DNA from: a virus
Lineage: Duplodnaviria > Heunggongvirae > Uroviricota > Caudoviricetes
Strand: one strand, 5' to 3'
Virus record (IMG/VR): IMGVR_UViG_2529292882_000015
Length of the DNA: 39,577 nt
Part shown: positions 33,587-35,086 of the stretch, piece after piece
How positions within the stretch are numbered: the first letter of the stretch is position 1
Layout of the letters: the number at the start of each line of letters is the position of its first letter
The notes under the pieces: generated by a model
What the model was told of the DNA's origin: nothing
What the model saw: the letters and a program-made list of their open reading frames with translations, nothing else
Databases searched by the model: none
Program-made: the position numbers and the translations under genes

Positions 33587-33748
33587 ATGCAGTGGAAAAT
33601 CATCAACGGTTGGTACTGCGTTACTGCATGCGGATTCATGAGCTGGAAGTTCCGCACCTTACAGGAAGGCATTAAGTGGGCTTTCGTCAGCAAAGAAGCT
33701 CGCGATGTAGCCAACGATAACGAGATATGGGAGGAGGTTAGCAAATGA
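33587..33748 (+). CDS. Small first gene of the pL operon (53 aa), not in the supplied ORF track
   Basis: RBS GAGGT 8 nt upstream; translation MQWKIINGWYCVTACGFMSWKFRTLQEGIKWAFVSKEARDVANDNEIWEEVSK; stop overlaps the next start (ATGA). Confidence 0.35.
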   Translation: MQWKIINGWYCVTACGFMSWKFRTLQEGIKWAFVSKEARDVANDNEIWEEVSK

Positions 33749-34779
33749 GTGAATTATCAATCATCGAAATCACACAAGATATGGCACCAAGAATTTACGT
33801 TGAAAAAGGACTGGAAAAGTTTCTCGAGCAGATCCGTGAAGGTGTTAATGAAGTGCCTGACATTAGCACAGACAAAGGCAGAAAGCGCATTGCATCTCTG
33901 GCTGCGAAGGTTTCAAGAAGTAAAACAGCGGTAGAAAAACCAGGACGTGATTATCTGAAACGCCTGAAAGAACAGCCGAAAGTAGTTGAAGCAGAGTTAC
34001 GACGCTTCGTAACCGAATGCGATCGGCTTCGTGATGAAGTACGCCGCCCACTCACCGAGTGGGAAAATGCTGAGAAATTACGCACTGAAGCACTGCAACA
34101 ACGCCTGACAAATTTGCGAGCACTGGCTGACGTGATCGATCTCTCCGGAAACTACTTGCCATCAACTGATATTCAGGAACGAATTCAAGAGGCTAAATCA
34201 GTAGCACTTGATGAGAGTTGGCAGGAGTACGCAGCAGAAGCTGGAGTAGCCAAGGATTCAACCATCCAGAAACTGGAAGAATCACTCGCAGTAGCTCAAA
34301 AACGCGAGCATGAAGCCGCTGAGCTGGAGAGACTTCGCAAAGAAGCGGAGGAAAAAGCGCGCATTGAGCGAGAAGAGAATATCCGCCGGGAAGCTGCTGA
34401 ACAGGCCAGGCTCGAAGCTGAACAAAAAGCGAAAGCTGAAATTGATGCTGCGGCACGCCTGGCGGCGGAAGAGAAAGCACGTGCTGAAGTAGCAGAACGT
34501 CAGCGAATTGAAGCAGAGCAGCGTGCACGACGCGAAAAAGAAGAAGCCGTTGCCGAGGAACGCCGACGCCAAGAGGAGGCAGAAAAAGCCCGCATTGAAG
34601 AACAGAAGCGTATCGCCGACGAAGAAGCGCGCCGAGCTGCGGATAAAGAGCATCGCCGTACCGTTAACCGCAGAGTAATCGCAGATCTGATAGCCCAAGG
34701 CATTCCCGAAGAATTCGCGCAGAAAGCAATGTTGGCTATCGCTGGCGGCAAAGTGCAGGACGCGTATATCAAATATTGA
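33745..34779 (+). CDS. Protein with long E/R/A/K-rich single-helix or coiled-coil region, unknown function
   Basis: 344 aa, strong RBS GGAGGAGG; about 130-aa charged repeat region (EAEQKAKAEIDAAARLAAEEKARAEVAERQRIEAEQRARREKEE); precedes the Exo/RecT genes. Confidence 0.55.
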   Translation: MSELSIIEITQDMAPRIYVEKGLEKFLEQIREGVNEVPDISTDKGRKRIASLAAKVSRSKTAVEKPGRDYLKRLKEQPKVVEAELRRFVTECDRLRDEVRRPLTEWENAEKLRTEALQQRLTNLRALADVIDLSGNYLPSTDIQERIQEAKSVALDESWQEYAAEAGVAKDSTIQKLEESLAVAQKREHEAAELERLRKEAEEKARIEREENIRREAAEQARLEAEQKAKAEIDAAARLAAEEKARAEVAERQRIEAEQRARREKEEAVAEERRRQEEAEKARIEEQKRIADEEARRAADKEHRRTVNRRVIADLIAQGIPEEFAQKAMLAIAGGKVQDAYIKY

Positions 34780-34786
34780 GGTGGGT

Positions 34787-35086
34787 ATGAACGTTAATCA
34801 GCAGAAAAATCTTCAAAAAATCATGCTGGCATTCGACAAGGACTACCGCCTGTCAGAACAGCTATATGACCGACAAGTTGAACTGATTGAGACCATCCGG
34901 CTTCATCAACTGGCCTCAACTTTCGACGTTGTAACAGGTAAAGGCGTTCGCCAGGAAGTACTGGAGGCCGCTAAAGACAGTCCAGAGCTCGAAGAACTAA
35001 TGGATGCCTACCGGCGCGAGGCAATGGCAATTATCGCCCGCTGGGATCTGGCTGATCAGATTGATGGGCAGAGGGACGCGGCATGA
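34787..35086 (+). CDS. Hypothetical protein in the recombination operon
   Basis: About 99 aa from ATG 34787; the ORF track begins at GTG 34781. Confidence 0.45.
   Translation: MNVNQQKNLQKIMLAFDKDYRLSEQLYDRQVELIETIRLHQLASTFDVVTGKGVRQEVLEAAKDSPELEELMDAYRREAMAIIARWDLADQIDGQRDAA

Follow-up and report, generated by a model that had tools for sequence, protein, structure and literature searches.

The window analyzed in this study comprises 39,577 nucleotides of viral DNA (IMG/VR virus record IMGVR_UViG_2529292882_000015) and represents an epsilon15/phiV10-like prophage of the genus Uetakevirus. An early-left (pL-like) operon of this prophage is headed by three genes encoding proteins of 53, 344 and 99 amino acids, which are designated here as s53, X344 and p99 and are followed by genes for an exonuclease and a RecT single-strand annealing protein (SSAP). 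The stop codon of s53 overlaps the start codon of X344 (ATGA), 7 nucleotides separate X344 from the ATG codon of p99, and the stop codon of p99 overlaps the start codon of the exonuclease gene. As each start codon overlaps the preceding stop codon or lies close to it, the genes form one translationally coupled unit. The placement of the three genes at the head of a pL operon upstream of Exo/RecT, as proposed by the initial annotation of this DNA, was confirmed by the open reading frames (ORFs) of the plus strand and by the genome of Escherichia phage phiv142-3. This closest phage shares 97.9% DNA identity with the window over positions 33400-35200 and contains the same three coding sequences (53, 344 and 99 amino acids), which are labelled as hypothetical. 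The sequence comparisons described below identified X344, with high confidence, as a new member of the Agt/Mog family of phage phi80.

Identification of X344 as a homolog of phi80 Agt

Searches of Pfam, NCBIfam and PADLOC yielded no match for s53, X344 or p99, and sequence matches in the PDB were confined to low-complexity noise. The three proteins were assigned to PHROGs 898, 1376 and 856, respectively, all of which are classified as function-unknown. RefSeq/PGAP labels X344 as a hypothetical protein, and the allele is present in 35 of 5,426 complete E. coli genomes. Among 89 members of the X344 family, no Pfam family was detected beyond coiled-coil noise.

A tblastn search with the last 46 residues of X344 detected the phage phi80 gene 'agt: anti-toxin for Gam' with 91% identity. 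The subsequent BLASTP comparison of X344 with Agt (PHI80_40, AFV29176.1) of phi80 (Lula), the phage in which the family received its name, resulted in a full-length alignment with 55% identity and an E value of 9e-96. The identity amounts to approximately 70% over residues 1-115 and is near-complete at the C-terminus, while residues ~116-185 are gapped against an unrelated segment of Agt. As regards the window, X344 is an ordinary member of the Agt family. The phi80 record JX871397 annotates agt (322 amino acids) as 'anti-toxin for Gam; Mog (modifier of Gam)' and gamL (93 amino acids) as 'host RecBCD/SbcCD enzymes inhibitor; toxic without Mog', and gives the gene order kil, PHI80_41, agt, gamL, rec (RecT), exo. 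The view of the initial annotation that the three proteins have no recognisable function was consequently retained for s53 and p99, which lack matches in Pfam, NCBIfam, PADLOC and the PDB, and was revised for X344 in favor of homology to Agt. The phi80 gamL gene is reportedly toxic and unclonable. A search of the accessible literature revealed no experimental description of the X344 family, of phrog_1376 or of Agt/GamL.

Homologs of X344 carry diverse labels in phage records, including TolA protein, cell envelope biogenesis protein, major outer membrane lipoprotein, ribosome recycling factor, antitoxin protein and tail-fiber protein. These labels apparently derive from matches to the charged helix and look like annotation errors. 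In particular, a TolA or envelope identity was rejected, as no Pfam TolA match was found among the 89 members and the similarity is limited to the charged helix.

Domain architecture and structure model of X344

The X344 protein consists of a conserved N-terminal region, a rod of variable length that is rich in E, R, K and A residues, and a conserved C-terminal segment of about 45 residues ending in I-K-Y. Close homologs are invariant over residues 1-200 and ~300-344 and differ by indels of 7 and 11 residues between these regions. In an alignment of 89 diverse relatives, the N-terminal region is characterized by the signature EVPDLxTxKGRxRIASLAAKVSRSKTAxDxxGKxY...LRDEVRxPLTxWE and the C-terminal segment by the signature ADxxHRxxINxxxxxxLxxxGxxxxxAKxxVxAIAxGxIxxVxIxY, in which the terminal tyrosine is near-invariant. 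Residues 223-300 of the rod are composed of 80% E/R/K/A and 10% hydrophobic residues. The three-part architecture had already been noted in the initial annotation and is borne out by these data; the 'repeats' mentioned there exist in a compositional sense, as Tandem Repeats Finder (TRF) revealed no genuine tandem repeat within the charged stretch.

An AlphaFold2 model calculated from the single sequence contains one long helix (residues 170-317) at a predicted local distance difference test (pLDDT) score of 73.6. The model based on the alignment of 89 sequences reached a pLDDT of 89.3 and comprises helices at residues 43-126, 157-238 and 246-317 together with a small C-terminal domain; the helices fold back into a bundle, and the turn at residues 238-246 is of low confidence. 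The first of these helices (residues 43-126) carries a net charge of +9. The composition of residues 223-300 resembles that of ER/K single alpha-helix (SAH) domains, such as that of myosin VI, and the X344 family profile weakly matched the SAH region of myosin VI and the charged helix of Zuotin. Neither the searches of Pfam, NCBIfam and PADLOC with X344 nor the Pfam search with the 89 members returned an enzyme family. X344 is most likely an elongated, all-helical and non-enzymatic protein.

Size of the X344 family and conservation of its genomic neighborhood

At E <= 1e-3, the N-terminal domain of X344 (residues 1-180) matched 4,922 representatives of clusters formed at 50% identity; a threshold of E <= 1e-10 left 2,653. 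With few exceptions, these representatives have a length of 300-390 amino acids and contain the domain at the N-terminus. The genomic neighborhood was deduced from two sets of loci. The first set was obtained by fetching 80 loci with 49-100% identity to X344, with counts given over 81 loci, and the second set comprises 57 loci around a distant subfamily with approximately 35-40% identity to X344. The ORFs of these loci were clustered, and key clusters were named with Pfam. Distant representatives located on metagenome contigs contributed little, as these contigs were mostly too short to be informative.

In the first set, an SSAP gene is located downstream on the same strand in 76 of the 81 loci, the other five being truncated contigs. 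The respective SSAPs were classified as RecT (67 loci), Rad52/22 (five), Erf (two) and Sak4/AAA_24 (two). In the second set, an SSAP gene was detected at a distance of at most three genes in 47 of the 57 loci and is the immediately adjacent gene in 32 of these. In eight additional loci, an exonuclease or SSB gene was detected or an unclassified protein takes the place of the SSAP; of the last two loci, one is cut off by the contig end directly at the gene, and the second contains an SSB-like gene four genes downstream. Over both sets, an SSAP gene of any of the four families was counted 0-4 genes away in about 135 of the 138 sampled loci. The partner families confirmed by Pfam are RecT, ERF, Rad52_Rad22, AAA_24, YqaJ, DUF3799 and SSB. 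Accordingly, orf53 of Pseudomonas phage D3 and gp18 of phiAH14a are located upstream of Erf and exonuclease genes, the X344 homolog of Klebsiella phage RCIP0034 precedes Erf, and Vibrio phage 1.246.O shows the order X344 homolog, 105-amino-acid protein, DUF3799 and RecT. In mEp213, the X344 homolog mEp213_044 is encoded upstream of cIII, kil and Erf. A covariation between the sequence types of the X344 N- or C-terminal domain and the SSAP family, which would indicate direct binding, was observed only as a weak association that changes with the threshold applied (adjusted mutual information, AMI, 0-0.26).

The gene following the X344 homolog was determined for 112 non-redundant loci. It encodes an SSAP in 36 loci, p99 or its probable relative c20 in 34, another small ORF in 23, GamL in 14 and an exonuclease in five. 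A GamL gene in the next position may thus not be a defining feature of the Agt family, since it was found in only 14 of these loci.

A cluster of proteins of 258-320 amino acids (d39; L148:1694-2638, L145:2492-3454 and L161:4806-5582) without a Pfam match occupies the usual position of the annealing protein, flanked either by the X344 homolog and YqaJ or by DUF3799 and SSB. This cluster is a candidate for an unrecognised annealing protein.

The agt-type gene as an optional cassette

Presence and absence of the X344 gene were compared in the 80 best p99 loci (L163-L242). In 77 of these loci X344 is missing, and the gene for the 50- to 53-amino-acid protein runs straight into the 99-amino-acid gene. 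In phiV10, for instance, the X344 gene is cleanly absent and the 50-amino-acid gene abuts the 99-amino-acid gene (L002 3340-3343). A comparable situation was observed in 80 GamL loci, of which 35 contain an Agt homolog ending 8 nucleotides upstream of gamL, whereas about 38 contain no Agt homolog in 4 kb of upstream sequence and a 69-amino-acid ORF abuts gamL. These counts, along with those of the following genes, indicate that the agt-type gene is a facultative cassette at the head of recombination (Rec) modules that is not tied obligately to GamL or p99.

With respect to the context of cI, s53, p99 and RecT, the exonuclease belongs to the DUF3799 type in 59 of the 80 p99 loci and to the YqaJ type in 20.

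The p99 protein and the GamL slot

The p99 protein has only 48 close relatives, all of which are encoded in prophages of Enterobacteriaceae. With a length of 99 amino acids and a net charge of -6, it resembles phi80 GamL (93 amino acids, net charge -7), and no Pfam Gam match was obtained for p99. When phi80 GamL served as a jackhmmer query against the complete ORF set of the fetched loci, cluster c16 proved to represent the GamL family. The c16 gene of sister Uetakevirus-like and phi80-like contigs is located exactly between the X344 homolog and the exonuclease/RecT genes; examples include L049:7067-7360, L054:7073-7381, L057:7034-7339 and L152:7079-7363. Since sequence and profile similarity were not detected and slot, size and charge alone are held in common, p99 is to be regarded as a positional analog of GamL only. 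Cluster c20 is a probable relative of p99 according to a profile comparison (hhalign probability 79%), and the slot proteins of c99 and of the Vibrio phage (105 amino acids) turned out to be unrelated to p99. The slot downstream of X344 thus appears to accept alternative acidic proteins of about 100 amino acids (p99/c20, GamL and c99). The p99 protein is a candidate for a functional analog of GamL with no detectable homology and the best candidate for a small effector or inhibitor of the Rec module in the window.

Distribution of Chi sites in the window

The window contains ten Chi sites (GCTGGTGG), all of which are located on the minus strand, with none on the plus strand and 1.4 expected by chance. 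This orientation corresponds to the coding strand of the late genes, and codon usage, for which the count was not controlled, may add to the strand bias. In a survey from 2025 covering 325 lambdoid Rec modules, the classes SSB, nuclease, annealing protein and anti-RecBCD were distinguished, with GamL being included in the last class (PMC12315714). A top-strand Chi count of at least four was reported for 18 of 25 phages that have a Rec module devoid of an anti-RecBCD gene versus 24 of 202 phages with such a gene (PMC12315714). Agt is not mentioned in the main text of this survey (PMC12315714). The ten co-oriented Chi sites argue, modestly, that the phage works with RecBCD and does not block it; the pattern accordingly counts as evidence against a role of X344 or p99 as a strong inhibitor of RecBCD.

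The s53 gene, the control region and further features of the window

The s53 protein matched phrog_898 (unknown function) with an E value of 3e-38. It is a homolog of phiV10p39 and epsilon15 gp37, is encoded in 79 of the 80 p99 loci and is conserved in Uetakeviruses. The initial annotation had placed the three genes where lambdoid phages encode the N protein and host-interaction or anti-defence proteins; the comparison with N is valid for the position only. The s53 protein has a net charge of 0, contains seven lysine or arginine residues among its 53 residues and is not arginine-rich. A lambda N-type antiterminator was rejected, as neither a Pfam or PHROG match to N nor an arginine-rich N-terminus was found; nut sites were not searched for. 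The first gene of the operon, s53, is specific to the lineage.

The coordinates of the genes and sites discussed are listed in Table 1. The terminator following the repressor gene is also annotated in phiV10. The promoter consists of TTGACA-N17-AATTAT (33525-33553), with the TTGACA hexamer at 33525-33530 and the end of the -10 hexamer at 33553, and matches 10 of 12 positions in the promoter scan. It is bracketed by two 17-bp inverted repeats of the type ATTACC-N5-GGTAA(T/C), namely ATTACCTAACGGGTAAT (33490-33506) and ATTACCTCAACGGTAAC (33552-33568), which are probable operators for the cI-like repressor encoded just upstream. The interpretation as a pL operon is reasonable on account of the repressor gene, the terminator, the TTGACA promoter and the inverted repeats located upstream of s53. 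An alternative GTG start codon at 34781 would extend p99 to 101 amino acids. The NCBIfam match of the exonuclease is the C-terminal part of exodeoxyribonuclease VIII.

Table 1. Genes and sites of the window, with the early-left operon and its control region
Feature	Position	Strand	Remark
cI-like repressor gene, two helix-turn-helix (HTH) motifs	32849-33433	+	upstream of the terminator
Intrinsic terminator after the cI-like repressor gene	33454-33473	+	8-bp GC-rich stem, then T run
Predicted early-left (pL-like) promoter, bracketed by operator-like inverted repeats	33490-33568	+	sequence reading and promoter scan
s53, first gene of the operon, 53 aa	33587-33748	+	ORF; phrog_898
X344, Agt/Mog-family protein, 344 aa	33745-34779	+	ORF; phrog_1376; homology to phi80 Agt
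p99, acidic protein, 99 aa from ATG	34787-35086	+	ORF; phrog_856
RecE C-terminal-type PD-(D/E)XK exonuclease (DUF3799)	35083-35904	+	Pfam DUF3799, 2.5e-22; phrog_412
RecT single-strand annealing protein	35901-36782	+	Pfam RecT, 1.3e-31; phrog_561
AlpA-like, PerC-like and MT-A70 methylase genes	downstream of RecT		same operon
Integrase gene		opposite	
Chi sites	2576, 9087, 10461, 12293, 12708, 15882, 17684, 21152, 25686, 38706	minus	octamer, span 2576-38713

The RecE-like and RecT parts, which are encoded by two overlapping genes in the window, are annotated in phiV10 as a single fused protein of 586 amino acids. In the distal part of the early-left operon, the gene for a PerC-family activator (37190-37489) overlaps the start of the gene for an MT-A70-type DNA methyltransferase (37470-38132). 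Additionally, the element is present in E. coli NADC1036 (NZ_CP076267.1 and NZ_CP076264.1) both in the chromosome and in the form of a 38.7-kb record with plasmid typing, which presumably represents an excised circular phage genome captured in the assembly.

Functional interpretation of X344

Between phi80 and the window, the components encoded next to the Agt homologs are swapped, since GamL is replaced by p99, the lambda-Exo-like exonuclease by a DUF3799 protein and RecT by a RecT without BLASTP similarity, and the termini of the Agt proteins nevertheless remain 70-91% identical. Such conservation suggests that the target is invariant, namely a host factor or DNA, and not a specific phage protein, and the weak association of the X344 domain types with the SSAP family points in the same direction. 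We therefore give roughly even chances to the interpretation that X344 is a helical protein of the Agt/Mog family that tempers the interference of the Rec module with host nucleases by acting on such an invariant target. This target would be the host DNA-end machinery (RecBCD/SbcCD/SSB) or the DNA itself. By acting on it, X344 would temper the harm arising from the interference of the module with host nucleases, as the phi80 record says of GamL toxicity; it may modulate the dealings of the module with the host DNA-end machinery and thereby buffer the toxicity of a Gam-type effector. The protein comprises a basic helical N-terminal domain with the family motif EVPDLxTxKGRxRIASLAAKVSRSKTAxE+xGRxYL...RDEVRxPLTxWE, followed by the rod and by a small conserved C-terminal domain ending in I-x-Y, and its gene is an optional cassette in the first position of phage Rec modules. 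A role of X344 as a modulator of the dealings of the module with the host DNA-end machinery, which rests on one annotation, is proposed with moderate confidence.

Several observations weigh against the interpretation as a tempering factor. The function of Agt rests on the GenBank annotation JX871397. The occurrence of p99 without X344 in 77 of 80 loci fits poorly to a dedicated antitoxin, GamL is likewise encoded without an Agt homolog in about half of 80 loci, and in 36 of 112 loci the SSAP gene directly follows the X344 homolog with no small gene in between. Moreover, p99 was rejected as a GamL homolog by BLASTP (E value 5.5) and by hhalign against the GamL family (probability 0.4-0.5%). The ten Chi sites suggest that the phage does not inhibit RecBCD strongly; if this applies, there may be no inhibitor toxicity that has to be neutralised. 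Finally, an exception to the conserved neighborhood was detected in the lytic Acinetobacter myovirus vB_AbM_WUPSU (L012 2944-4047), in which a homolog of the N-terminal domain with 35% identity is encoded just upstream of neck-terminator and tail-sheath genes and no recombination gene is located nearby.

A more far-reaching and more tentative proposal, to which we assign distinctly less than even chances, combines both genes: besides SSB, nuclease, annealing protein and anti-RecBCD, the Agt family would represent a fifth functional class of Rec modules that has gone unrecognised, and p99 a new sequence type of Gam-like effector directed at host nucleases. Agt would then act as a long helical adaptor on the host DNA-end machinery or on DNA ends and would be compatible with any annealing protein. 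If this is true, Agt and p99 would account for the way in which Chi-rich phages that lack known anti-RecBCD genes cope with RecBCD.

The strongest alternative regards X344 as a general recombination co-factor that constitutes a fifth class of the Rec module independently of Gam-like proteins. The basic N-terminal helix would bind DNA, the rod and the C-terminal domain would tether or protect DNA ends or bridge partner proteins, and the 'anti-toxin' effect recorded for phi80 would be an indirect consequence. X344 homologs adjoin SSAP genes of four unrelated families as well as several types of exonuclease and SSB, which is in accordance with this assumption, as are the loci with a directly following SSAP gene (36 of 112), the positive charge of helix 43-126 (+9), the elongated helical bundle of the model and the presence of Mu-Gam-like, DUF1351, DUF2483 and Gp157 proteins in the equivalent upstream position in Firmicutes phages (PMC8093625). 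On the other hand, X344 is dispensable in nature, as phiV10 and most close relatives contain p99, the exonuclease and RecT without X344, no DNA-binding fold or family matched X344, and the adjacency could result from operon position alone, since Rec modules are located in the early-left operon. We consider a general co-factor clearly less likely than not.

It is unlikely that X344 itself inhibits a host nuclease or a defence system as an anti-RecBCD, anti-restriction or other anti-defence protein. The initial annotation had suggested a recombination accessory or a nuclease inhibitor, and the former suggestion is well supported by the homology to Agt and the strand-annealing neighbors. An inhibitor would be consistent with an optional, mosaic cassette in the early-left region, as known for many anti-defence genes, with the linkage to genes dealing with host nucleases and with the lack of an enzymatic domain in X344. 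However, the phi80 record assigns inhibition to the small downstream gene gamL and describes Agt as its modifier, and the X344 homolog of mEp213 co-occurs with the known anti-RecBCD gene abc2. Furthermore, the ten Chi sites in late-gene orientation versus 1.4 expected fit the Chi-rich pattern of phages devoid of anti-RecBCD genes (PMC12315714), and neither PADLOC nor another known family provided a match.

A toxin-antitoxin-like or abortive-infection pair of X344 and p99 that benefits the prophage or host and not phage recombination is improbable. The wording of the phi80 record ('anti-toxin' and 'toxic without Mog') and the adjacency and translational coupling of both genes would be compatible with such a pair, but p99 occurs alone in 77 of 80 loci, and most of the distant loci encode X344 homologs without p99 or GamL. 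Expression in the lysogen is also not expected, because the genes are located behind an early lytic promoter under repressor control, and PADLOC revealed no match. The least probable explanation, a TolA-like envelope, coiled-coil or virion protein, is suggested by the labels 'TolA protein', 'cell envelope biogenesis protein' and 'tail-fiber protein' and by the one homolog adjoining neck and tail genes, and it is disfavored by the restriction of the similarity to a low-complexity E/R/K/A-rich helix, the early and not late operon position and the lack of a Pfam match to TolA or a structural family in 89 members.

The interpretation of X344 as a tempering factor of the Agt/Mog family concerns a widespread group of proteins, since the Agt family comprises thousands of sequence clusters from phages of Escherichia, Pseudomonas, Vibrio, Klebsiella and other hosts, is absent from Pfam and NCBIfam, and has one phi80 annotation as its sole functional clue. 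Rec modules are a source of recombineering tools and shape the mosaicism of phage genomes. Learning the role of Agt could explain why some Gam-type inhibitors are toxic, could improve the portability and tolerability of RecET/Red systems and could bring to light a novel manner by which phages tune, rather than block, RecBCD/SbcCD.

Comparison with known phage recombination systems

In Firmicutes phages, DUF1351 is a frequent upstream neighbor of erf, sak4 and recT, and the Mu-Gam-like, DUF1351, DUF2483 and Gp157 proteins that share this upstream slot have been proposed to be functionally analogous (PMC8093625). The DUF1351 proteins show the same genomic habit as X344, as they are helical, have a size of approximately 250-350 amino acids and are encoded just upstream of several SSAP families (PMC8093625). 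There is also a weak local likeness between the motif KxEIxxPYxEFE of DUF1351 and RDEVRxPLTxWE of X344. Homology to DUF1351 (PF07083) was nevertheless rejected, since hhalign probabilities against the X344 family amounted to 0.2% for one sequence and 1.45% for an alignment of 14 sequences, and no Pfam DUF1351 match was obtained for X344 or 88 relatives, whereas a control DUF1351 protein scored 4.6e-18. The parallel is positional, and homology is not supported.

The Abc1 protein of P22 and Arf provide another comparison, as they are encoded by non-essential accessory genes of Rec modules and modify the dealings with RecBCD (PMC12315714, PMC5928155). Both are much smaller than X344.

The closest known counterpart is phi80 Agt, although phi80 is a lambdoid siphovirus and the phage of the window a podovirus. 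Agt and X344 (322 versus 344 amino acids) are unrelated in the middle (residues ~116-185) and differ in the length of the rod. Downstream of them, phi80 encodes GamL and the window p99, the exonuclease is lambda-Exo-like in phi80 but of the DUF3799/RecE type in the window, and the two RecT proteins show no similarity in BLASTP. In spite of these differences, Agt and X344 have the three-part architecture in common and occupy the same early-left position directly before an acidic protein of about 95 amino acids and a pair of RecT and exonuclease, so that the order X344, p99, exo and RecT of the window parallels the order agt, gamL, recT and exo of phi80.

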